Source of the DNA: a virus | Lineage: Duplodnaviria; Caudoviricetes | Virus record (IMG/VR): IMGVR_UViG_3300037183_000089 | Location: 1-34,894 of that record | Strand: one strand, 5' to 3' | Length of the DNA: 34,894 nucleotides | Shown here: positions 4,517 to 21,256 of the stretch, one piece after another | How positions within the stretch are numbered: the first letter of the stretch is position 1 | How the letters are laid out: every line of letters starts with the position of its first letter | Made by a program: the position numbers and the translations under genes | Notes under the pieces: generated by a model | Database searches by the model: none | Told to the model about the DNA's origin: nothing | The model's input: the letters and a program-made list of their open reading frames with translations, nothing else

Positions 4517-4741
4517 ATGGACACAAAAGACATCGACTTTCCAGCACTGGCCGAGTACCTCTTTGAAAGCGAATTGCGGGACATTGAATTCGAGACCGAG
4601 TGCTGGGGTTCTCTCAACCGAAGCCAGAAGGCACGGTGCATTGAGGCCGTACGAAGGGCGTTCCGACCGCAAGTCAAGTTCGTAGAGCCCTCACGTATAG
4701 AGGCCCAACGGCCCCGCTGGTTCAGGAGCCTTCTTCGCTGA
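4517..4741 (+). CDS. Hypothetical protein (antisense insertion, leaderless)
   Basis: TAGACT 4505-4510 plus 6 nt then ATG; the 3' end overlaps the terL 3' end by about 50 nt. Confidence 0.6.
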   Translation: MDTKDIDFPALAEYLFESELRDIEFETECWGSLNRSQKARCIEAVRRAFRPQVKFVEPSRIEAQRPRWFRSLLR

Positions 4742-7225
4742 CATCGGCGGAGCGGTGCCGGGTAGCCAGCCTTTGTTGATCGACCCAGAGCTTCTACGCG
4801 GCTTCGCCGGGCTCAACGGCCTCGCATTGCAGAGATAGCGTTTGCAGTCCACGCCATGGTCTTCGCGCTTGACAACGTCGAATGAGCCGTCGTCTTTGGG
4901 CTTGAGTCGGTAGCGCCTGGTCTCGCGAATCAAGTTCGAGCAGTTTTCGCCAATGAGGAGAAGGGGATCGGGCTCACCTTCTGAGTCCCTGTGCTCCAGG
5001 CGGCGCATAACCTCGAAGACTCCGCCCTCTTTGTCGTTGTTAGCCCTGATCGTGCGGATGCCAGCGCGATAGTAGGCAGCCTCAACGGTGTCGGGCGTCA
5101 TCTTGCCATTCAGTTTCGCCCCGGTCAGCGTGTGGTTGCGGGCGGAAGGGTCGATCAGCGTGTACTTCGGCTCGACGCCCCAAGCCTTGCGCTTCTCCCT
5201 GATCCGTTCCGCTGCGTTCTCGGGGATCGAAGCGGATTCGGTCAGATATAGCTCGTCGTAGATCAGGAGTCGGTTCTCGGGATCGAAACCCGCGAATAGG
5301 ACAGCAGTCGTGTTATAGCCGGGGTCGATGACCTCGTAGAGGTCCAAGCGCTGCACATGGTCTTTCCCGGCGTCTGAACGCAACCACTCGGGATTGACGC
5401 AATGCAAGTCCTTGTCGAACATCGGGTAGACAAGGCCCTCCAGGTGCAGGAACTCCCCGCCTTCCCTCGCACGCCTGACCAAGTCCGGGAGGTTTTCAAC
5501 CAGGCGGTCGATCTCGGCTGATGGGATCGCCGGGTTGTCCCTGACCGAGGCCCTGACCACGAGCATCTTCTCGTTCAGCCAGACGTTCTTTTCGATTTCC
5601 GGCCCCTTCTGTTCTTCAAACTCATCGAAGGTCCAGCCGATTCCATTGAGGGGCGTGAAGGTGAAGAGTTCATCGCCACCAGTCTCCGCCAAGCGCCATT
5701 GGCACTCCTGGCGGATTTCCTCGCCTTTCACGCCGTCTGGCTCCTCATCGAAATGGCAGTTCCCGGTGACGAAGACCGCTCCATTCCGTTCCGCTACGAA
5801 GGTTCCGTTCTCGGTGGTCGGACACCAAATCGCTGTCGGCTCGTCGACCTCAGAGCGCTCCAGCTGGCAGACCGAGACCCGCGAGTAGTCGTACCGCTTG
5901 CTTTGCGCCGTGCGACCGTTGATTACGGACCAGGAATACTTGGTTTTGAGTATCTGCGCTCTATGGCCGAGAAGGGACGCGAGAAGAAGGAAGGCTTCTT
6001 TGTGCTGCCTGCGCGACGTGGTAATCGTCCACTTCCCGCTAGGCAGATATTGGCCGTCGCCCTTGATAATTGCGTCAAGCAGAATTTCGCGCTGGCGGGT
6101 GCCTAGGGACAGAATGAAATCTTGCGGAAGCCACTTCTCGGGGCCGGTGATATCCAAAAGCCTTTCGCGCGACTTGCCACGAAGATGGTAGTTGCGCATG
6201 GTCCCCTGGCACTTCTCGTCCCCATATGGTCTCTCCTCGACCCGATACTCAAAGCCCTCAAGCCAACCCTCGATTTCTTCGCACTTTGCAAAGTTGTAAG
6301 AAGACGATTGACCGATGAACATATTGCTGCCGCTGATGCAGCCATCGGTAACAAGCCAGCCCACAAGGGCAATCTCGGCGTCAGAGAAATCGGGGTTGTC
6401 CGCGTCTACGGCAGAAGTTCCGCCAACGATCAACTGCTCGGTGGTCTTTAGCTCATCGGTCGTCGTGAAGTAGTTGCGCTTGGTCTTCTTGTTATAGACC
6501 CACCAGCGATGATCCCCCGTAACGAGAAGATCGAAGTTATTGCGCGAGCGTAGGCGCGTCATTCGATCCTCGGCACTTTCAAATAGCCGCGTTATCGGCT
6601 TCCACTCGTATGCCCCTGTCTCCGTATTGAGGGTCAGGATCTCATCGCCCTCCGTCAGATACTCGGCGGTTGCCCAGCCCTTGCGCGACAAGGCCCGCGT
6701 CTTCTTATCCACGCATCTGTGCCTCGTCACGCCTCCAAACTTACTACGGTCCTGCTCATAGGACATAACCTCGATGAAGGAGCCGTTGCCGAAGCGCAGC
6801 CGATGCTCTCGCTGGGACCAAGCCTCTTCCCACGAAGCGCCCTTGAATTCGAATGCCGGGCACCACCGATGGATCGTCTCTTGAATGGCTTGCAGGGGAA
6901 GGCCGAAGTCGGGGACCACGATGCGGACGCTGCATGGCGGCTCGAAGCGCTTGAAGCGTTTCAGGTGGTCCGGCACCGATTCTTTATCGATGCACTGGAT
7001 CACGTCGTCTATGACGCCTGCTGCCGTCTTTCCCGAACGGTTCCCACCGAAGTAGACCCTGAGCCGCACCTTGGCAGAATGGAAGGCCAGTTGCTTCGGG
7101 TGTGGCCGGTAGCCCCAGAGGGGATTGGCCTCAAGGGCCGCGTTGAAAGCCGCCAGTTCTCGCTGAACCGCTGGATCGTTGAGAGCAGACGGATCAGAGA
7201 CTTCAATCTGAGGGGTTGGATTCAT
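4691..7225 (-). CDS. terL: Terminase large subunit containing an intein
   Basis: PHPKQ adenine-binding motif, Walker A GGNRSGKT, Walker B HFDEEP, coupling motif TFTP, nuclease IDPG...EDHGVDC. ATG 7225 is preferred over TTG 7246. Confidence 0.95.
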   Translation of the reverse strand: MNPTPQIEVSDPSALNDPAVQRELAAFNAALEANPLWGYRPHPKQLAFHSAKVRLRVYFGGNRSGKTAAGVIDDVIQCIDKESVPDHLKRFKRFEPPCSVRIVVPDFGLPLQAIQETIHRWCPAFEFKGASWEEAWSQREHRLRFGNGSFIEVMSYEQDRSKFGGVTRHRCVDKKTRALSRKGWATAEYLTEGDEILTLNTETGAYEWKPITRLFESAEDRMTRLRSRNNFDLLVTGDHRWWVYNKKTKRNYFTTTDELKTTEQLIVGGTSAVDADNPDFSDAEIALVGWLVTDGCISGSNMFIGQSSSYNFAKCEEIEGWLEGFEYRVEERPYGDEKCQGTMRNYHLRGKSRERLLDITGPEKWLPQDFILSLGTRQREILLDAIIKGDGQYLPSGKWTITTSRRQHKEAFLLLASLLGHRAQILKTKYSWSVINGRTAQSKRYDYSRVSVCQLERSEVDEPTAIWCPTTENGTFVAERNGAVFVTGNCHFDEEPDGVKGEEIRQECQWRLAETGGDELFTFTPLNGIGWTFDEFEEQKGPEIEKNVWLNEKMLVVRASVRDNPAIPSAEIDRLVENLPDLVRRAREGGEFLHLEGLVYPMFDKDLHCVNPEWLRSDAGKDHVQRLDLYEVIDPGYNTTAVLFAGFDPENRLLIYDELYLTESASIPENAAERIREKRKAWGVEPKYTLIDPSARNHTLTGAKLNGKMTPDTVEAAYYRAGIRTIRANNDKEGGVFEVMRRLEHRDSEGEPDPLLLIGENCSNLIRETRRYRLKPKDDGSFDVVKREDHGVDCKRYLCNARPLSPAKPRRSSGSINKGWLPGTAPPMSAKKAPEPAGPLGLYT
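5759..6715 (-). mobile_element. Intein (319 aa) with LAGLIDADG homing endonuclease
   Basis: Junctions HR|CVDKKTRAL and VFVTGN|CHFDEE; block B VTGDHRW; block F IWCPTT; LAGLIDADG-like LVGWLVTDG and LLDAIIKGDG. Confidence 0.93.
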
Positions 7226-7263
7226 GATATTATGTCCATAATTCAACGAAGGGAGTAGAACCA

Positions 7264-7488
7264 GTGAAGACCTACGTAATCCACGCCACTTGCAATTACG
7301 TCACCCGACAGAAACAGACGGGTGAGACGTATAGCGCCACCCGACGCCCGACGATGTCCGTCGAAGCGTCCAGCGAAAAAGCCGCAATCAACAAGGCGAA
7401 GAAGCAGCAGAAAGCGGCCATTGGGTCCGAGTGGTGGCCGTGCATTTCCCTAGGCTTCCGCGCCGACCTCGTTAGGGCGGTCAAATGA
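7264..7488 (+). CDS. Hypothetical protein (antisense cassette)
   Basis: GAAGGGAG RBS and GTG start; VEASSEKAAINKA motif. Confidence 0.7.
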   Translation: MKTYVIHATCNYVTRQKQTGETYSATRRPTMSVEASSEKAAINKAKKQQKAAIGSEWWPCISLGFRADLVRAVK

Positions 7489-7724
7489 GACGCCTTCTCA
7501 ATCTCGAAGTGATCTTGGGCCTACTCTGCGTCGTGGCTCTCGTAATCGCTACGCAAGACCCCTTCGGCTGGGCTGAATCAGAACCGACGAAACCCGATTG
7601 GCACAACGCCAACTGCTACAACATCCCGGCCCGATACCACGGCGGTCTGTATTGCTCAGACGAAGAGGCCGGAGGGAATCACGGCTATGTCAATCCGGGG
7701 AGCATGGAATGGGAAGTGGAATGA
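7485..7724 (+). CDS. Small membrane-anchored or secreted protein
   Basis: N-terminal hydrophobic helix then a domain with two Cys; ATGA-coupled at both ends. Confidence 0.7.
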   Translation: MRRLLNLEVILGLLCVVALVIATQDPFGWAESEPTKPDWHNANCYNIPARYHGGLYCSDEEAGGNHGYVNPGSMEWEVE

Positions 7725-7909
7725 GCCATAACGGCATGTCTCAAGACGTGCGGACGAGAGCAGAAAACGAAAAGGCCGGAGAACCTCTCTGTTCACGCTG
7801 CGAAGGGACCGGCAACGAAATCTATTCGATGTATCGGAAATGCTGCGCTTGCAACGGTACCGGCGTTTCTAAACAGCCGCTTTCCCATAAGTCCGTTCCA
7901 GAGACTTAA
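7721..7909 (+). CDS. DnaJ-type zinc-finger protein (62 aa)
   Basis: CSRCEGTG and CCACNGTG (two CxxCxGxG); ATG 7721 overlaps the upstream stop. Confidence 0.7.
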   Translation: MSHNGMSQDVRTRAENEKAGEPLCSRCEGTGNEIYSMYRKCCACNGTGVSKQPLSHKSVPET

Positions 7910-9593
7910 GAATCGCGCCTTTGTCTTCTGGCACGGCTTCTTTACCAGCGCCAATCCCTGCGCCAACCTGTTCCAGCTTTTTCAGGGTCCGGTGAGCTTT
8001 CTGCGCCTGAGTCAGCTTGATCGGGGACTTGGAGAAACCGGGTTTGGTCTGTGTCGTCCCGGCGCTGGGCTGAATCGTCGCCGTGGTTCCGCTGGAAGAG
8101 AGGGTCATGCCGGGGAAGCTTTCCGAGGACGTAGGGGAGAAGCCGAGCTGTAGGGCCTGCTTCTTACCGAGACCCGGAACGTGGCCCACGTTGTATTGCG
8201 CCAAGTAGCTAGCTGAGGGAGCTGGGTGGGGGCCGAGTCCTCCTGCGCCGCTATCGCCCACGCTCGTGCCCCAGTATTCGTTGCCGATCTTCATGAACGT
8301 GTGCTCACCGTTGTAGAAGACCGTCACGGCTCCGGGACCGGGCTTCAGAACCTCTCCCATCGACCCTGACGTGAGCGGGGTCTGGAGGATGCCCGCTTTG
8401 TTCAGCACCCAAGAGACAGCGCCTGAGCAGTCCAGGCCGGACGGAGCCGCTTCGATTGAGCCATGGCCACCGCCCCAGACATAAGGGATGTGGCGGCTTG
8501 CCAAGGCAGCTGCGGCCTTCTTGATCGCCTTGAATCGGGTTACGACCTTCTTGGGCGCCGGGCCAAGAGAAGTTGACCCTTTTACGTTCAGGCCAAGTTT
8601 TCGGGCCAAAACTTGACTTTGATGCAACTTGCGCTGCTGCGATGGCTTCAGTCCTCCACGTTCAGTTGCCTTGAGGATCGCATTGGCTTCAGGCTTCACT
8701 TCGTCATAGCGACCCCGGTACTGCTCGGCAGGGCGCTGGACGTTGGCGGCGAGTTCCCCAGCCGTAGCTCCACTCTGTTCTTTGGCCTCCGAGAAGAAGC
8801 GCCGAGCGCCAGCCTTGACGTTACGAGGGTTCGGATAGATCGAGGCTCGTTCCTGCCGCCAGCCCTGCGAGTCGGAAGTCCCGCCGGGAAGATTCTGGAA
8901 TCCCGACTCTACAAGTCCGGTCTCAGCCGCAGCGAGCTTCTCCTTACGAGTAGCTCCAGCCTTGACTCCCCGGCGCAGCACCATCCTGGCAACTTTCGAT
9001 TGCTGGGCAGTGAGGCCGGGGAGTGGTCCGGCGTGTTTGGCCGCTGCTGATTCTAGCCGCTTAAGAGTCCCAGCGGTCTTCCGAACAGCCGGTGTCGTCA
9101 CGTACCCCTTGCGATTCGTCCTGAGAAGTCCTTTGCTTTGCGCCGAGCGAAGTTCGTTGAGACTTGGCGTTCCTGCCGTCTTCGCCCCTTGGAACTTCGG
9201 AGGTTTGTAGCCCGGGACCCTTGGCTCCTTAACGCCGCGGACCCCGAGCGAAGCCAACTTAGCATGGCTCTCTGGAATGCGTGAGGTAGCCTCAGAAGCC
9301 CGCTGCTGCGTTCTGCGATGGAACTCTAGGGCTGAGGCCTGCTCGGCCTTTATGCGGCTTATACGGCGTTGCGAGGAACGCGTCTGTCTGACAGCTCTCT
9401 TGGCTTCAACGGGAGACAGGCCGCTGGTCGAGATCACCCGTCCTTCGTGGGACGTGACGACTTTCGGGGGCGCCGCCTTGACCTTCCGGGTTCCGCCTAT
9501 CGCTTTGCCAGGACCGGTCGAAGTCTTGCGTCGTTCGTTGACGACTGTCCCTCTGCCAGGGACTACATAGGTTTTCCCGGCTCGTAGGGGCAT
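7869..9593 (-). CDS. Peptidoglycan hydrolase: basic N-terminus, lysozyme-like domain and NlpC/P60 peptidase; probably virion-associated
   Basis: ETGLVESGFQNLPGGTSDSQGWRQER (transglycosylase-like with candidate catalytic Glu) and PYVWGGGHG...GLDCSGAVS...EHTFM (NlpC/P60 Cys-His). Confidence 0.85.
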   Translation of the reverse strand: MPLRAGKTYVVPGRGTVVNERRKTSTGPGKAIGGTRKVKAAPPKVVTSHEGRVISTSGLSPVEAKRAVRQTRSSQRRISRIKAEQASALEFHRRTQQRASEATSRIPESHAKLASLGVRGVKEPRVPGYKPPKFQGAKTAGTPSLNELRSAQSKGLLRTNRKGYVTTPAVRKTAGTLKRLESAAAKHAGPLPGLTAQQSKVARMVLRRGVKAGATRKEKLAAAETGLVESGFQNLPGGTSDSQGWRQERASIYPNPRNVKAGARRFFSEAKEQSGATAGELAANVQRPAEQYRGRYDEVKPEANAILKATERGGLKPSQQRKLHQSQVLARKLGLNVKGSTSLGPAPKKVVTRFKAIKKAAAALASRHIPYVWGGGHGSIEAAPSGLDCSGAVSWVLNKAGILQTPLTSGSMGEVLKPGPGAVTVFYNGEHTFMKIGNEYWGTSVGDSGAGGLGPHPAPSASYLAQYNVGHVPGLGKKQALQLGFSPTSSESFPGMTLSSSGTTATIQPSAGTTQTKPGFSKSPIKLTQAQKAHRTLKKLEQVGAGIGAGKEAVPEDKGAILKSLERTYGKAAV

Positions 9594-11681: not shown

Positions 11682-11709
11682 ACTGTATTACAGACCTCTT
11701 TGTATTACA
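11682..11709 (-). promoter_or_regulatory. Promoter with two TGTA-T-TACA palindromic boxes
   Basis: TGTATTACA at 11684-11692 and 11701-11709; the first overlaps the -10 box of the RHH gene. Confidence 0.7.
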
Positions 11710-11882
11710 AGGGCGCATTGTCCCTGGGCTTGTGCAAGACCGACGTATAAATAAATAACCAACACGCGCAACCACGACCACTCCCCCGCCCCCCCCTATG
11801 GCTTGCTAGAGCGGTTTGAGGACGATCAGCGCCCAGGCTTTGCACGTAATGACGCAGGCGTGAGAGAGGACCGCTGGCGCTC

Positions 11883-11925
11883 AGAAGCCCTGAGGACGGT
11901 ATGACCCGTTGCGCACAGGGCTTCT
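11883..11925. repeat. Inverted repeat with a 10-bp perfect stem
   Basis: AGAAGCCCTG (11883-11892) and CAGGGCTTCT (11916-11925), with an inner ACGG/CCGT pairing. Confidence 0.75.
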
Positions 11926-11946
11926 CAACGCCTAGCTAAGCCTAGC

Positions 11947-12096
11947 TCATCTGGCTCTGTAATGCGGGATACCGCGTGTATTACGTGGCTGGTACCGCGT
12001 CCAGGCTTGGAGCCTTAGGGCGCTAGCTGCACGTTCTTCGTCAGCCCAGCGCTTGAGGATCGCCTGCTTGCTCTCTTTAGCTGTCTCAGTGCTCAT
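11947..12096 (-). CDS. Possible 49-aa protein
   Basis: Manual translation MSTETAKESKQAILKRWADEERAASALRLQAW...; GAGAGG upstream. Confidence 0.4.
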   Translation of the reverse strand: MSTETAKESKQAILKRWADEERAASALRLQAWTRYQPRNTRGIPHYRAR

Positions 12097-12239
12097 GCTC
12101 AGATACCTCTCAGACGCTCTGTAAGCCGTTCTAACGGGAATTCAGGGTGCTTAGGTAGGTAGACCTTCGGAAGGTGGTTGGAAGGGCTTAGAGCTTGCTG
12201 TAGATGCATTTATGAAATAGCTAGAGAGCTTACGAAGGA

Positions 12240-12524
12240 TTAGCTACTTACCTTTAACGCTTCTCCTTCAGCTACTACCTTCCTAGCTCTAGCTATTTCT
12301 TCAGCTAGCTCTTCTGCTCTAAGCAGGATATTCTCGGCAAGTAGGGCGTCAGGGCCTTTGAAAGCCTCGTCGGAGAAGTTGCACCACGCTAGGAAGTCCC
12401 AGGTGCCACGCCGTTTGCGGCTCTCCAGGGCTTCATCCAAGGTCAGCTTGAAGTCGTCGGAGTCAACGTCGCTTTGTAGGGCGTTGACTAGGCAATCTAT
12501 GGCGCTCTGTCTCTCGTTATCCAT
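12240..12524 (-). CDS. Hypothetical protein, leaderless
   Basis: TAGGAT plus 7 nt then ATG; divergent from the plus-strand operon. Confidence 0.65.
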   Translation of the reverse strand: MDNERQSAIDCLVNALQSDVDSDDFKLTLDEALESRKRRGTWDFLAWCNFSDEAFKGPDALLAENILLRAEELAEEIARARKVVAEGEALKVSS

Positions 12525-12556
12525 AGCTTCAATCCTACCAGAAAACCGCTCTGTGT

Positions 12557-12594
12557 TTGACTTCTAGGGCTATAGGTGTAAGGTAGTACCTTAC
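12557..12594 (+). promoter_or_regulatory. Sigma70-type promoter with an overlapping palindromic operator
   Basis: TTGACT-N16-TAAGGT; GTAAGGTA-G-TACCTTAC at 12578-12594; GAGGAGG RBS downstream. Confidence 0.8.
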
Positions 12595-12621
12595 GTTAGC
12601 AACGCGAGGAGGACCGAAAAG

Positions 12622-13414: not shown

Positions 13415-13675
13415 ATGCCTGACACTGGAAAGACAACGAAAGCCATTAGGGAGGCCCCTGTAGCTCCTGAGAGCGTCTTCGAGGAACCGTACAGAGACCT
13501 ATATCCCGAGACAAAGCCTCGCTACACCGTCGAGCTGACAACTGAGGGATGGCAGATCAAGGACAACGCGAAGGGCACGATCCGCGCTGACGTTTACCCA
13601 AGCAAGCGCGAAGCTGAGGACGTAGTGAGGATGTTCGAGTCCGTCGATGAGGCCGAAGGACAAGGGAGGCGCTAG
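13415..13675 (+). CDS. Hypothetical protein
   Basis: AAGGA RBS; RYTVE...GWQIKD...YPSKREAE beta-alpha pattern. Confidence 0.7.
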   Translation: MPDTGKTTKAIREAPVAPESVFEEPYRDLYPETKPRYTVELTTEGWQIKDNAKGTIRADVYPSKREAEDVVRMFESVDEAEGQGRR

Positions 13676-13852
13676 ATGAACCAGTACGCCGTGAGAATCG
13701 CCGCTAGCGCCCACTGGAGCGCAGCGCGCCGCACGATCAGGGTTTGGGCCGATAGCGCCGATAACGCTCGCGCAGAGGCGCTGCGGCACCGAGTGGCTAA
13801 GCAATTCCAGACTCCGGTAGTCGTCTATACCCGAAAGGTATCTTTCAAATGA
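13676..13852 (+). CDS. 58-aa hypothetical protein
   Basis: Manual translation MNQYAVRIAASAHWSAARRTIRVWADSADNARAEAL...; GGAGG RBS. Confidence 0.65.
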   Translation: MNQYAVRIAASAHWSAARRTIRVWADSADNARAEALRHRVAKQFQTPVVVYTRKVSFK

Positions 13853-13920
13853 ACCGCTCAGACGCTCTAGGCATCCTTCTCGGAGCCGTTGTGATCTTCG
13901 TCCTGGTTCACTGGATATGA
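13849..13920 (+). CDS. 23-aa single-TM peptide
   Basis: MNRSDALGILLGAVVIFVLVHWI; ATGA overlaps at both ends. Confidence 0.6.
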   Translation: MNRSDALGILLGAVVIFVLVHWI

Positions 13921-14165
13921 ATCGCCTGCAACGCTGGAAAGCAAACCGAAGAGTTATCCAGAGCACCGAAGGCTGGGTAGAAGTACCGGGCTGGTGGTCG
14001 CCTACCCAGCGGGCTGGAGCGAAGGCTGCGCTCAGAATGTGGGAATGCAACCGCAGTTATGCACGAATGCAAGGCGAGACGAGACGCTGCCCCCGCTTCC
14101 ACCAGCGCCACGCTACTAGCCCTCAAGCTCCTCAGCCTCTCCCTCAAGCTCTTCGCCCGGCATAA
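13917..14165 (+). CDS. Hypothetical protein
   Basis: ATGA-coupled; the 3' end overlaps the convergent terS by 50 nt. Confidence 0.55.
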   Translation: MNRLQRWKANRRVIQSTEGWVEVPGWWSPTQRAGAKAALRMWECNRSYARMQGETRRCPRFHQRHATSPQAPQPLPQALRPA

Positions 14166-14631
14166 CCACTTTGACCCCGAACTTGCGCTCCAGGTTGATC
14201 TGGATCTGAATCGGGTTCGCAGTCTGCGGGACAATGGGATCAGCGTCGAGCATCTGGCCCTTGTCGGTGTGAATCGCTGAGCCTAGCCCAGCTTTGCCCT
14301 TCAGGGCCAGCAGCGCCTCTGGCTTAAGTTCATCAGCTTCCATCTGAGTCTCAAGGCGATCCGTAGCTTTCGCCTCAAGCTCAAGGTCTCTGATCGCTGC
14401 GGCGTGGTGTTTGTCTGCAAGGAATTCCTTGACGTGCTCGGCCTGCTTGATCCGAGCCTCGCGATACATGCCAGGGTGCTCGACACGCGCCCACTTCTTG
14501 AGGCGGTCTATCGAGACAGGCCGTCCTTCTTCCTCCAACTGCTTGCAGGTAGGGGCTAGCGCGCCTGCGTTAGCGGCCAGAGCCTCTAGGGCTACCTGGA
14601 CCTCGGGGGCGCGGTCTAGGCTAGTTCCCAT
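14116..14631 (-). CDS. terS: Probable terminase small subunit
   Basis: N-terminal HTH (APTCKQL...VSIDRLKKWA), long helices, AIHTDKGQMLDADP resembling the GI..DK..LL.G.P motif, and a C-terminal IQIQIN strand. Confidence 0.65.
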   Translation of the reverse strand: MGTSLDRAPEVQVALEALAANAGALAPTCKQLEEEGRPVSIDRLKKWARVEHPGMYREARIKQAEHVKEFLADKHHAAAIRDLELEAKATDRLETQMEADELKPEALLALKGKAGLGSAIHTDKGQMLDADPIVPQTANPIQIQINLERKFGVKVVMPGEELEGEAEELEG

Positions 14632-14827
14632 AGAACTTACGCTTCCAGCGAGACTGAGCGTCGTTCATCCAACGGCTCAACTCATCTTCGCTCGCCTTGA
14701 ACACTACGGGCTCTACCCAGCGTCCCATCCATCGCGCGGGCCACTCCCAGGTTGCTTGAGCCAGATCAGGAGTTGCATTCCAGCCAACGATCTTTGAACG
14801 TCCGCCCAGGTCAAACGTGATCTTCAT
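14621..14827 (-). CDS. Hypothetical Trp-rich protein, leaderless
   Basis: TAGGAT plus 7 nt then ATG 14827. Confidence 0.6.
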   Translation of the reverse strand: MKITFDLGGRSKIVGWNATPDLAQATWEWPARWMGRWVEPVVFKASEDELSRWMNDAQSRWKRKFYGN

Positions 14828-14849
14828 GGCCACGATCCTATCTCAAGAA

Positions 14850-15275
14850 CTGCGAGTAAGGTAAGCGATGCGGACGGAGGGCGCAGATGCCTCGCCTATT
14901 GCCTTGTCTCCGCCCGGCTACCCTGACCTCCTCGGCGCTTTCCCTAATCCGGGGTGCGAAGCGCCTACTAAGGGAGTGACCGCATGGCATGGGATCGCTA
15001 CACCCTTGGGCGACCCTCATCATATCGAAAACTCCACCGCTCGCGGATCAACGGCGAGGAGGCTCTACGAGCGGTGGCTTTGCGGGAGAGAACCGCAAAC
15101 TAAAGGAGCGCAACCCGGGCGCTAGCTCAGCATACGATCTGAGGAGAAGCGTGAATCCCGGCGATGCGCTCTTGGAAGATCATACCGGAAAGTGGCAGGG
15201 GCCAGATACTTTCCTGACCCTCAACTGCGGCCTTCGAGCGCGGATCTTAAGGCGCTCGCTAGGGACTTGGGCAGA
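14850..15275 (-). ncRNA. Putative structured non-coding RNA region (unclassified)
   Basis: No convincing CDS; at least seven consecutive stems and three candidate -10 boxes (see findings). Confidence 0.55.
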
Positions 15276-15297
15276 AACATAGCAGTTCGGTCAAGAG

Positions 15298-15465
15298 CTA
15301 CTCGCCCCAAGGCGTTTCAAGCAACTGATCTGCCCAGAACTTGAAGCGCTTACCTTGGTGCTTCCCCTTCTCCTGCCAGTCAGCCCATACCCAGCCATCC
15401 TGCTCTGCTGCCATCACCAGAATCACAGGACGGCCGAGGTAGAAACGCTGTTCGCCCTCAACCAT
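15298..15465 (-). CDS. 55-aa hypothetical protein
   Basis: Manual translation MVEGEQRFYLGRPVILVMAAEQDGWVWADWQEKGKHQGKRFKFWADQLLETPWGE; overlaps the upstream stop. Confidence 0.65.
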   Translation of the reverse strand: MVEGEQRFYLGRPVILVMAAEQDGWVWADWQEKGKHQGKRFKFWADQLLETPWGE

Positions 15466-16584: not shown

Positions 16585-16787
16585 AGGAGCTTCCCGTCAT
16601 CGAAAATGTAGAAGGGAACGCCCATGTTCCGACCGTTGGCTTCAGCATTCTCCAAGTCGTTGGTCTCCCAATAAACGCGTAGGCCAGCCTCGGTGGCAAT
16701 CGCCATCTCATATCGACACCCGTGATCTACGGTTCCGGGTGGATACGAGAGTTGGCCTCTCGCGGGTTCCTTCTCAACCTCAATCAT
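16581..16787 (-). CDS. Hypothetical protein
   Basis: ATGA overlaps; GAGGAG RBS. Confidence 0.65.
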   Translation of the reverse strand: MIEVEKEPARGQLSYPPGTVDHGCRYEMAIATEAGLRVYWETNDLENAEANGRNMGVPFYIFDDGKLL

Positions 16788-17368
16788 GCTGTTCTCCTCG
16801 CCGTCTCGTTGATCCTAGATTCCAGCTTGCTCAAGACCTTTTCGATCTTTCTCTCTGCAAACTGAAGTTCCGATCCAAAGGTACCACGGCCATGCAGGAG
16901 CGGGTTGTCCCGAATGCGGTCCAAGGCTCCTTTGACCTCTGCGCGGTGGCTTCTGAGCAGTTGAAGGGCCGGATCACTGCCCTGTTTCTTGAAGCGTTCC
17001 TGGTCGGCCCTTGAGACTTCCTCCCCAGAGCCTCTCAGAGCCGCCCCAGGGCTATGGGTATAGGCAGACGCCTCAGAGGCTTTGACAAGCTCAGCGCCCG
17101 TTAGATCGTCTCTCAGGCCCTCCTCGTAGCCAGCACTGCGAGTCCTGGCGCGTAGGAGGCGAGGACGTTCATCCCTGACCGTATAAAGCAACAGCCATAA
17201 ATCGTTGTCTTCCTGCTGAGCGCCCGATGCAACCAAAGCGACTTTGGCCGAAAGCCGGTATTCCTGGCCCATGATCCATGTGTCGAGAAAGACGGTCGGC
17301 CTAAGAATCCTTGGATGTTCTCCCGCAAAGAGAGCTTTGCGCTGCTGGCGGGTGAGGGAGAGCTTCAA
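16784..17368 (-). CDS. Hypothetical protein
   Basis: 194 aa; TTGA-coupled. Confidence 0.7.
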   Translation of the reverse strand: MKLSLTRQQRKALFAGEHPRILRPTVFLDTWIMGQEYRLSAKVALVASGAQQEDNDLWLLLYTVRDERPRLLRARTRSAGYEEGLRDDLTGAELVKASEASAYTHSPGAALRGSGEEVSRADQERFKKQGSDPALQLLRSHRAEVKGALDRIRDNPLLHGRGTFGSELQFAERKIEKVLSKLESRINETARRTA

Positions 17369-17568
17369 GCTTCTATAACTCGCAACGCTGTAGATGCTTC
17401 GATCAAAAGCAACCCCGCTTGTTTAGCACCCTCCGAGGTTAGAAGCACAGGAGCTTTCTGACCCGGAATCCGGAGAACAACATCTCCCGGTCCATCAAGA
17501 TTAGGATCGATATCGACCTCTAGGAGATCAAGTTGCTTTCGATCCGTTGAATTAGCCAGATCTTCCAT
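17365..17568 (-). CDS. Hypothetical protein
   Basis: The likely start is ATG 17568 (MEDLANS) after GAGGAGG, not the extended ORF from 17727. Confidence 0.55.
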   Translation of the reverse strand: MEDLANSTDRKQLDLLEVDIDPNLDGPGDVVLRIPGQKAPVLLTSEGAKQAGLLLIEASTALRVIEA

Positions 17569-18047
17569 TTTCCCGAATCCTCCTCGCCTGGAACCCTCTC
17601 CGCAAAGTCTTCGGCCATGCTCTTCGATTCCCAAAGCTTCTTCCAGCCATTGTGGGCTTTCGTCCGCCCGTTTTTCGAGGTCGAAATCCAGGGATCGTAG
17701 GCAGCGCCGCAAACAACCTGAAGGCACCCTACCAGCCCCATCCGCTTCAGGTGCTTCTTGACAAGCCAGAAGTCATCAGCGTCGAACTCGGTTTTGGGAT
17801 ACCAGCACGAAAGCCGCCACCACGTATGCAAGCACTCAGCCTCGTCCCAGAGGGAATCAGTCTTTGCCACCGTCTCGTCGTCTCGCTCAAGCTTGGTGAT
17901 CTTGGCCTTGAGGACACGAAGATCCTTCTCGTACTGGACCAGGATGTCCTCGCGTTTCTCGCATTGAGGGCAACTAACGATCTCCCCGGTCTCAGGGGAG
18001 ACGACACCGAGAAGTGGACGGCGGCTCAAGCGTCCTGCTCCACCCAA
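17520..18047 (-). CDS. Putative replication initiator / replisome-organiser-like protein
   Basis: PETGEI motif, CPQC and coiled coil, then HLKRMGLVGCLQVVCGAAYDPW...NG...GWKKLW, which resembles the C-terminal domain of phage replisome organisers. Confidence 0.5.
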   Translation of the reverse strand: MGGAGRLSRRPLLGVVSPETGEIVSCPQCEKREDILVQYEKDLRVLKAKITKLERDDETVAKTDSLWDEAECLHTWWRLSCWYPKTEFDADDFWLVKKHLKRMGLVGCLQVVCGAAYDPWISTSKNGRTKAHNGWKKLWESKSMAEDFAERVPGEEDSGKWKIWLIQRIESNLIS

Positions 18048-19243: not shown

Positions 19244-19274
19244 GATCTAACCACGATATCACGCGCTGTTTATG

Positions 19275-19317
19275 AACGAAAGAGGCCCGCTACCCTCAAC
19301 TAAGAGAGCAACGGGCC
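19275..19317 (-). terminator. Intrinsic terminator
   Basis: GGCCCGTTGCTCTC-TTAGTT-GAGGGTAGCGGGCC-TCTTTCGTT on the minus strand. Confidence 0.8.
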
Positions 19318-19372
19318 AGTCCCATCGTCGTCAGCAGTGCATAGATACGTCTGAGAGCTTCTGCTGGGCTCT

Positions 19373-19545
19373 CTAAGCGGCGTTCTCGTCCTTTGAAGGG
19401 GTAGGTAGCGGATGAGGTTTCGCGGCGCTTGGAGGGCCGAATGCAAACCGCATGCCCGCTCTCCTCGGATCTTCTTTGATCTCCCGCTCCGGGACGCCTA
19501 GATTGCGCAGCGCCCTTCGAGAGCTTTTCGATCCCGGCGGTTCAT
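19373..19545 (-). pseudogene. Frameshifted small ORF (about 57 aa if shifted -1)
   Basis: The ATGA-coupled start gives MNRRDRKAL and stops after 15 codons; the -1 frame continues RRALRNLGVPEREIKEDPRR... to TAG 19373. Confidence 0.45.
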
Positions 19546-19754
19546 TCGGGCCTCGTAGAGGCTTCTACGACTCGCTCTGCATAGTCGGCCGCTTCTTTCG
19601 CTCTTTCCTCACGGTCCCCCAAAACACCCCAATCAATGGGAGACCTATCCCCCGCGACCCAGCCGCGCAGCCATGCGGTTTCGAGAGCTTTTCGAAAGTA
19701 CTCCGTAGGCATCTGGACGATTCGGGGCTCAGGCATCTCGGGATCAGTTCTCAT
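19542..19754 (-). CDS. Hypothetical protein
   Basis: 70 aa within the operon. Confidence 0.65.
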   Translation of the reverse strand: MRTDPEMPEPRIVQMPTEYFRKALETAWLRGWVAGDRSPIDWGVLGDREERAKEAADYAERVVEASTRPE

Positions 19755-20588: not shown

Positions 20589-20996
20589 TCAAGCCTCCAC
20601 GGGACGGCCGGTGGCTCGACAGAGGCCAGCGATTAGCGCTACGGCTGAGTCCGGCAGAGCGTGAGGACCTTCAATCGAATCGATCAATTCCGCGATCTGA
20701 TCCAGAGCTACGGTATCCGTCATCGTGGCTTCAAAGGCCCTGCTCGGCAGGTAATGCTTCTGCCAGGCCCCTCGTTTCTGTTCTCCTCCGACGACCTTAA
20801 GCGCTCCGGCCTCAAAGAGGACCTTGAAGTGGTAGCTGATCGGGCCGAGGGGGACTCCGAGCTTGTCTCCGGCCTGCTTGGCAGAGATTGTCTCCCCCTT
20901 GGCCTTCGCTTCCTCGGCCAGGATCATGATCTTGCGGCGTATTGGGGTACGACAGGCGTCTACGAGGGCCATTGCGTTCTTCTCGGGTTTAGGCAT
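20589..20996 (-). CDS. ArsR-like winged-helix transcription regulator
   Basis: TPIRRKIM...ISAKQAGDKLGVPLGPISYHFKVLFEAGAL...KRGAWQKHY; GAGG RBS before ATG 20996. Confidence 0.85.
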   Translation of the reverse strand: MPKPEKNAMALVDACRTPIRRKIMILAEEAKAKGETISAKQAGDKLGVPLGPISYHFKVLFEAGALKVVGGEQKRGAWQKHYLPSRAFEATMTDTVALDQIAELIDSIEGPHALPDSAVALIAGLCRATGRPVEA

Positions 20997-21192
20997 GATC
21001 GATTCCTCCCCGGGTCTCAATCCACCACTCAAAACCGCTTTCTTGAAGTGCGTCCTCCAGACCGTCCGAAAGTGGACCACCCCTCATCAAGGAATCTTCT
21101 ATCTCGCTGGCGGTTTCGCCCTCGTTAGCGTGGTGCCATCCCCCATCGTCCCTGATATTGCCGTTTACGCTCCAGCAAACTCGGTATTCCAT
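20989..21192 (-). CDS. Small acidic hypothetical protein
   Basis: GGGAG RBS; first gene after a strong promoter. Confidence 0.7.
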   Translation of the reverse strand: MEYRVCWSVNGNIRDDGGWHHANEGETASEIEDSLMRGGPLSDGLEDALQESGFEWWIETRGGIDHA

Positions 21193-21228
21193 AGGTTCTC
21201 TCCCTACGTTGTGGTCAGTGCTTCTTAG

Positions 21229-21256
21229 ACCATACAGATTCAGGAGGAACTGTCAA
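21229..21256 (-). promoter_or_regulatory. Sigma70-type promoter
   Basis: TTGACA-N16-TATGGT on the minus strand, directly after a terminator. Confidence 0.75.

Follow-up and report, generated by a model that had tools for sequence, protein, structure and literature searches.

A near-invariant two-hairpin element among exchangeable cassettes of a phage genome: a predicted antisense RNA with loops complementary to the phage's own ribosome-binding sites

Introduction

About 430 nt of predicted RNA structure lie in front of a terS-like gene on a phage contig (positions 14850-15275), and the question is what kind of RNA, if any, this locus encodes and on which transcripts it would act. The window, by which we mean the whole analysed stretch of 34,894 nucleotides, is a phage contig of 34.9 kb that carries terL and has the 5' end of a portal-like gene at its edge. 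In the original prediction, the locus was described as a continuous stretch of RNA structure upstream of a terS operon, with a loop that pairs to a target inside the same region. Here, we describe the locus by comparison with related phages and weigh the explanations that it allows.

Results

Genome setting and relatives

The search for relatives was based on the neighbouring ORF:

14116-14631, minus strand: terS-like ORF of 171 aa, used to find relatives

This ORF has 28 relatives at 60-84% identity. No Pfam or PHROG family matched it, and what leads to TerS is a PF06056 cluster (score 0.94) and a structure model (pTM 0.41) that matches the Sf6 TerS at an E-value of about 2. The term "terS operon" is therefore a loose one, since the TerS identity goes no further than these leads and terL lies 7 kb away, beyond a gene group of opposite orientation. 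Through the terS-like ORF 13 distinct related loci were obtained, six of them in genomes rated complete (42.6-45.4 kb), after removal of three duplicates (L008, L012 and L016, which duplicate L002, L003 and L007). One locus, L017, does not reach the slot. L018, L022, L025, L027 and L028, which made up 5/11 matches, were dropped as 17-mer chance matches in unrelated DNA.

The host is probably a member of Solirubrobacterales, because the matches of the NlpC domain (best GTDB match, 63%) and of a capsid homologue fall into one Solirubrobacterales bin, the NlpC match on a contig of that bin (G007, marked unpublished). The order-level genome samples used below were drawn around this bin.

Some further features of the window were recorded. 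TerL (4691-7246) has a probable intein, with PF14890 below the cut-off and relatives that match one part only. The interval 11700-12240 is a long gap without main-strand genes; it contains conserved patches and ten G in a row, and is a candidate packaging or terminal region. Short patches at 13849-13920, 13508-13567, 12510-12594 and 19273-19411 are more conserved than their surroundings, and the last of these includes a terminator-like hairpin.

A group of short non-coding units

Every stem arm and -10-like box of the original prediction was found where it had been placed, and so were the two occurrences of the repeat TGAGGGTC. The continuity of the structure holds for about 15026-15250 and fails for the full 430 nt. 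Over its full 431 nt, the region has only a modest folding advantage against its shuffles (z -1.98, 2/100 shuffles). On the minus strand, 15026-15175 (150 nt) reaches z -4.5, the lowest among the windows of that strand between 10 and 20 kb, and 15101-15250 reaches z -3.5 (30 shuffles each). The 3' part, 14859-15018, is at chance level (z -0.01). A single 430-nt RNA is also contradicted by the relatives, as the core described below is absent from one fully covered slot and cassette 2 is cleanly deleted in another phage. The region is better described as a group of short non-coding units, a reading that the original prediction had included as an ncRNA cluster, whereas its proposal of a packaging RNA found no support.

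A conserved ORF does not explain the region: the three ORFs that overlap it match relatives over core DNA only, or nowhere, and have no family match. Likewise, no Rfam covariance model matched the window or the 13 loci at the gathering score, and none at E-values up to 10 or 5; a Streptomyces-metH match (E 3.2) was rejected as chance level. ARAGORN reported no tRNA or tmRNA in the window at default settings and none in this region at a relaxed score, and blastn against INPHARED gave no match. An HDV-like ribozyme, RNase P, a put-type antiterminator, a CRISPR-repeat mimic and attP, candidates considered on the basis of motifs, were rejected, as there was no Rfam support and no cellular copy was found. 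Contigs from two RNA sequencing runs did not reach the region, which is neutral as to its expression. A perfect 10-bp inverted repeat (14858-14867 and 15347-15356, 479 nt apart) brackets the region; its arm at 15347-15356 lies inside a 55-aa ORF for which the six complete relatives gave no counterpart.

Fixed anchors and exchangeable cassettes

Judged from the alignments, the region is in related phages a series of fixed anchors with exchangeable cassettes between them. In the window the units are, in the order of transcription:

15272-15294, minus strand: anchor A, promoter-like, putative promoter (TTGAC, 7-nt spacer, TATGTT at 15276-15281)
15236-15257, minus strand: cassette 1a, first hairpin, immediately after anchor A
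15187-15220, minus strand: remainder of cassette 1a with a hairpin at 15199-15220, not found in relatives
15106-15184, minus strand: cassette 1b, a stable fold, with a -10-like box (15179-15184) and a bulged rod (15106-15171)
15026-15100, minus strand: core, 75 nt, predicted antisense RNA (conservation, fold, terminator-like shape)
15079-15099, minus strand: core hairpin 1, loop 15086-15092
15034-15077, minus strand: core hairpin 2, stems 15067-15077 and 15034-15044, loop 15045-15066 (22 nt)
15028-15033, minus strand: U-rich tail of the core
14858-15024, minus strand: -10-like box B (15019-15024) and cassette 2
14825-14860, minus strand: anchor C, promoter-like, putative promoter (TAGGAT at 14835-14840, 7 nt before the ATG at 14825-14827)

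Anchor A is kept in 9/9 aligned sequences and is present as a single copy in the window; its spacer is one helical turn shorter than canonical. At anchor C, TAGGAT stands about 7 nt before the ATG in most relatives, and the ATG is likely the leaderless start of a 68-aa ORF that precedes the terS-like ORF. A motif ending in TGTTT is common to 15272-15290, about 12520-12530 and the left anchor of a second slot (see below); near three promoter-like sites, it could be an operator of a phage regulator.

The sequences between the anchors vary from phage to phage. In the first hairpin of cassette 1a, 3/6 pairs are changed on both sides and 94% of cells are paired; its covariation score exceeds 500/500 shuffles, with the three double changes mostly coming from one relative. 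The GGAAAGT/ACTTTCC pair in the same cassette is an alternative to hairpin 15199-15220 or a possible pseudoknot. For cassette 1b, blastn found no homologue; in its place, two relatives have another rod with a TAGAAT box. The hairpin of cassette 2 (14914-14971) is 86% identical over 58 nt to a sequence in another phage (G005:8493-8550), which there lies in the slot between portal and scaffold genes and is antisense to structural genes. Two adjacent compensatory pairs distinguish the two copies, the reading frames differ, and the internal loop resembles a bulged-G motif. Searches with a model of this cassette (R1) gave back the two sequences used for training and no others in 26 sources, and there was no match in 151 order-level genomes.

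Three relatives have tRNA-like cassettes (L013 335-410, L014 141-222 and L004 5710-5791) whose anticodon or D arms are odd. A CUA anticodon loop is seen in one of them; the anticodon loop measures 6 nt in another and 8 nt in the third, which is the only unit above the ARAGORN default threshold. Another insert between anchors is an antisense ORF of 202 aa, a candidate GIY-YIG-like protein. The flanking cassettes are predicted to be separate, optional small-RNA cargo. Outside the window, a second cassette slot was seen between the portal and scaffold genes of G001-G006 (L059-L064), with conserved anchors and a leftward -10-like box; it holds small antisense ORFs in four phages, the cassette 2-related RNA in G005 and almost nothing in G001.

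The core element

Among the 13 relatives the core is complete in ten, cut by the contig end in one, absent in one whose slot is covered (L011) and in an uncovered slot in one. The loss in L011 counts against the antisense model. Nine relatives share 94-99% identity with the core, at a neighbouring terS-like protein that is only 60-84% identical; the tenth has 81%, with its changes mostly in loop 2. Both loops are of pyrimidine type, UUCUCUC and CCUCCUCGCC, and loop 2 contains CCUCCU. Hairpin 2 is followed by a U run, which gives the core a terminator-like shape.

The core folds with z -3.1 on the minus strand, and the opposite strand, with z -3.8, is as good or better, which counts against the antisense model. 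In the stems, 15/18 pairs are invariant and two change on one side while still pairing, and these two one-sided changes preserve pairing on the minus strand only. Compensatory changes were found neither in the core stems nor between loop and target in the aligned relatives, and this counts against the antisense model. The loop sequence and four sample ids were absent from six supplementary files of PMC10690425; the core may be among the unnamed candidates of that study.

Predicted target sites of the two loops

The following sites are complementary to the loops:

16794-16815, minus strand: T1 (loop 2), within the end of the 194-aa ORF 16784-17368; ribosome-binding site (RBS) of the gene that follows (start 16787)
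21194-21204, minus strand: T5 (loop 1), non-coding RBS of the first gene, 20989-21192; 11-nt match
17579-17588, minus strand: T3 (loop 2), 10-nt site ahead of an ATG, in the 3' part of ORF 17520-18047
19552-19560, minus strand: T4, weaker, upstream of a gene start; requires invasion of hairpin 2
17319-17330, minus strand: T6, weak candidate, 5' coding part of the 194-aa ORF; at least 10 nt in 3/7 genomes
12600-12612, plus strand: T2, weak candidate, RBS of the first plus-strand gene (12622); duplex -18 to -26 kcal/mol

T1 is orthologous in 7/7 genomes and takes rank 1-3 among the about 7,000-9,300 windows of each genome in a scan with the 22-nt loop 2. The predicted pairing comprises 15 contiguous bases in two genomes and 9 + 10 with a bulge in five, and the site occurs with two different protein alleles, both of which pair with the loop. 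Synonymous codons at T1 are identical in 42/44 cases (codon identity 0.95, compared with 0.70-0.73 further up the gene), and a 7-mer matching loop 1 lies nearby at 16849-16855 in 5/7 genomes. A conserved mRNA hairpin was observed just upstream of T1, at about 16820-16870; its sequence differs in G001 and G002 and still pairs. T1 is itself an RBS beside a conserved mRNA structure, which adds constraint even without any antisense RNA and counts against the antisense model. Searches with the 194-aa protein gave no usable match; a distant homologue of it is encoded on an integrase-bearing element of a cellular genome (L084, G302:C196), which shares no RNA with the phages.

T5 is an exact 11-nt match in 6/7 genomes and has a G-U-compatible change in the seventh. 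In the window it lies behind a terminator and a promoter of the form TTGACA-N16-TATGGT (21229-21256), and a terminator with TTGAC-N16/17-TATG(G/C)T precedes it in all seven genomes, where the site stands in front of six different genes. In IMG/VR, T5 is confined to six core-bearing contigs (co-occurrence 6/6), and its word is rare in order-level genomes (2 matches in 41). An HTH gene (HTH_20 match below the cut-off) overlaps the stop of gene 20989-21192. T3 is present in 6/7 genomes, with a duplex of -29.7 kcal/mol in the window. T4 is exact over 12-15 nt in 5/6 relatives and over only 9 nt in the window, and T2 is absent from several relatives. The conserved targets are located 1.7-6 kb upstream of the core and are spread over 4.4 kb. 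Two features of this arrangement count against the antisense model: T1, T3, T4 and T6 all lie inside coding sequence and are under coding constraint, and a conserved terminator-like site at 19.3 kb divides the target region into at least two units.

The originally proposed target, inside cassette 2, is a real complementarity in the window (duplex -24.7 kcal/mol) and is not conserved: its 11-mer is missing from 31/33 loci, and the remaining two, from one phage, carry a copy about 3.4 kb away. In its one homologue a G is missing and the site is part of a helix. The idea of an antisense RNA with an anti-Shine-Dalgarno (SD) CCUCCU loop was right in kind but named the wrong target; the conserved sites are distant RBSs.

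Statistical support for the matches

Among 3122 windows alignable in at least five of six relatives, T1 is the best conserved duplex site. Its mean duplex energy is -32.6 kcal/mol, against -25.1 (sd 1.9) for shuffled loops and -25.8 (sd 2.0) for shuffles that keep CCUCCU, and it was reached by 0/45 shuffles in each of these two control sets. The kinship of the seven genomes and the small number of shuffles count against the model. The pre-filter passed 25 windows for the shuffles and 60 for the real loop, and T1 is top-ranked either way. The opening cost is 3.6 kcal/mol for loop 2 and 5-13 kcal/mol for the T1 target.

Antisense matches of at least 10 nt occur in 21/2403 ATG-start regions of the seven genomes (core masked), compared with 2.8 expected from shuffles (0/2000 reach the observed number) and 4.6 if both anti-SD heptamers are kept (2/2000). 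Downstream control windows at +30 and +60 hold 5 and 2 matches, which is no excess, and the variable cassettes show no antisense enrichment either (6 vs 5.4; 2 vs 3.5). In start regions, same-sense matches exceed the shuffles too (10 vs about 3); they are scattered and mostly non-orthologous, and their excess counts against the interpretation.

Discussion

The account that we favour, and that we regard as likely, is that the core is a trans-acting, multi-target antisense sRNA whose loops would cover RBSs of the phage's own mRNAs and shut down early genes. Transcription of such an RNA would start at the putative promoter of anchor A, with read-through out of the unit upstream as a further source; the RNA would end at hairpin 2 with its U run, and would either stay fused to the variable 5' cassettes or be cut from them. 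Pairing would start at the loops and then block ribosome loading. At T5 the first gene of the unit with the canonical promoter would be silenced, and the HTH gene with it through coupling; genes further down would be silenced as well, with polarity on coupled genes. The outcome would be a delayed negative feedback that ends the early phase. Two points lead us to prefer a delayed shut-off: lysogeny genes were not found, and the RNA gene is located where the targeted region ends, next to the terS-like gene; the targeted genes are called early from promoter shape alone.

A related and bolder reading takes in the cassettes. The locus could be an RNA-only moron array, that is, a master antisense switch with exchangeable small-RNA genes that are swapped as decoys against RNA-cutting defences of the host. 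The cargo would then include a bulged-G RNA able to move from one of two slots to the other, as well as tRNA mimics whose anticodon arms are odd. We give this combined picture a small chance.

The main rival is that the same RNA, instead of timing an infection, confers immunity as C4 and CI do. In a carrier state without integration, anchor A would then drive its steady synthesis, and it would silence early genes of both resident and superinfecting phages. A promoter-like anchor belonging to the core itself and near-invariance across distant phages would suit this, the variant loop of L013 would fit a second immunity group and the loss in L011 a virulent form, and two ribbon-helix-helix (NikA-like) genes were found. 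However, tyrosine integrase, resolvase and ParA families had no match in any of the five complete relatives searched (5/5), the core pattern occurs in 0 GTDB genomes, and core DNA gave just short, chance-level matches in 8 of 301 order-level genomes. We consider a carrier-state immunity unlikely.

The core may also be understood purely in cis, as a tandem terminator that also forms the upstream portion of promoter B and serves cassette exchange as a homology arm, with the distant matches being shared DNA words such as operators or a common SD sequence. Its terminator-like shape agrees with this, as does the TANNNT box that follows it in all 11 aligned sequences, and in three sequences an antisense -10-like box abuts its other end. 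The clean deletion of cassette 2 in L009 runs between short TTTTCG repeats, and the core stems are without covariation. But a terminator has no need of invariant loops, and the best matches fall in exactly these loops, antisense to mRNA and on start regions, with a T5 word that is rare in order-level genomes. A cis role explains the position of the core, not its loops, and as the whole explanation we find it quite improbable; terminator and promoter roles can coexist with an antisense role.

Another reading is that host mRNAs are the main targets of the loops, which would then serve as general anti-SD decoys like sRNAs with C-rich loops; CCUCCU in loop 2 and some phage genes that look leaderless speak for it. 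It is very unlikely in our view, as the match to the phage sites runs well past the SD word and beats controls in which that word is kept, and AGGAGG is not avoided on the phage coding strand. Finally, the original model of a long RNA or attenuator with loop 2 pairing in cassette 2, or of a packaging RNA, had the local duplex and the position before the terS-like gene in its favour and is now hardly credible, being largely refuted by a local site that is missing from the relatives' slots and is changed and helical in its homologue, by cassettes unrelated between phages, by an optional core and by the distance to terL and portal.

Comparison with known antisense RNAs

On our reading as a trans-acting antisense sRNA, the core is by analogy a functional counterpart of P1 C4 and P4 CI and a member of neither family. 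The loops of C4 of P1/P7 (RF01695) are described as pairing around the RBS of a phage mRNA and blocking its translation (PMC12197685). In temperate phages, C4 governs heteroimmunity and the antirepressor (PMC12197685, PMC8201110). The core resembles it in loops that are complementary to phage RBS regions, a predicted pairing that draws on sequence matches and their controls. In contrast, it has no RF01695 or c4-motif covariance match, and its three to five sites span 4.4 kb at a distance of 1.7-6 kb. No icd/ant antirepressor homologue was recognised; the downstream genes scanned had no Pfam match, and no integrase was found in the five relatives searched.

P4 CI, likewise an antisense RNA of small size, shuts off the phage's own genes by pairing at more than one site (PMC4825925). 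CI is processed from the leader it controls, pairs with flanking seqA/seqC and acts by premature termination. The sites of the core differ in being distant RBSs upstream of the RNA gene rather than flanking sequences.

Sar of P22 is encoded opposite its target. With 68-69 nt it is similar in size to the core, and it blocks translation initiation of a phage mRNA; it is tabulated as trans and has a single target, ant (PMC12197685), where several are predicted here. The 6C sRNA of Actinobacteria uses C-rich loops to bind several mRNAs and needs no chaperones for this (PMC6486639). Its host phylum is likely shared with this phage; unlike the core, however, it is chromosomal and host-targeting, and the core has no Rfam match and no C runs as loops.

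Phage morons and late tRNA slots are promoter-bounded, optional cargo between conserved anchors. The present slot shares this organisation, with the difference that its cargo is mostly non-coding. It can serve as a natural catalogue of small RNAs outside known classes, which differ from phage to phage like counter-defence genes. Further literature for comparison is found in PMC2864571 and PMC4488713. In the mostly non-subscription literature that was searched, we found no work on this phage group and a small RNA and no fitting title on trans-acting antisense RNAs against early genes of virulent phages or on hypervariable tRNA-like decoys.

C4, CI and Sar, as described in the sources cited, are RNAs of temperate phages of Proteobacteria, and each controls a single unit (PMC12197685, PMC4825925, PMC8201110). 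If our reading is right, antisense control would extend to the timing of infection and to several RBSs in a phage without a detected integrase, and it would reach a poorly sampled host group, likely Thermoleophilia. Since the targets are defined to the base, this is directly testable with reporters.
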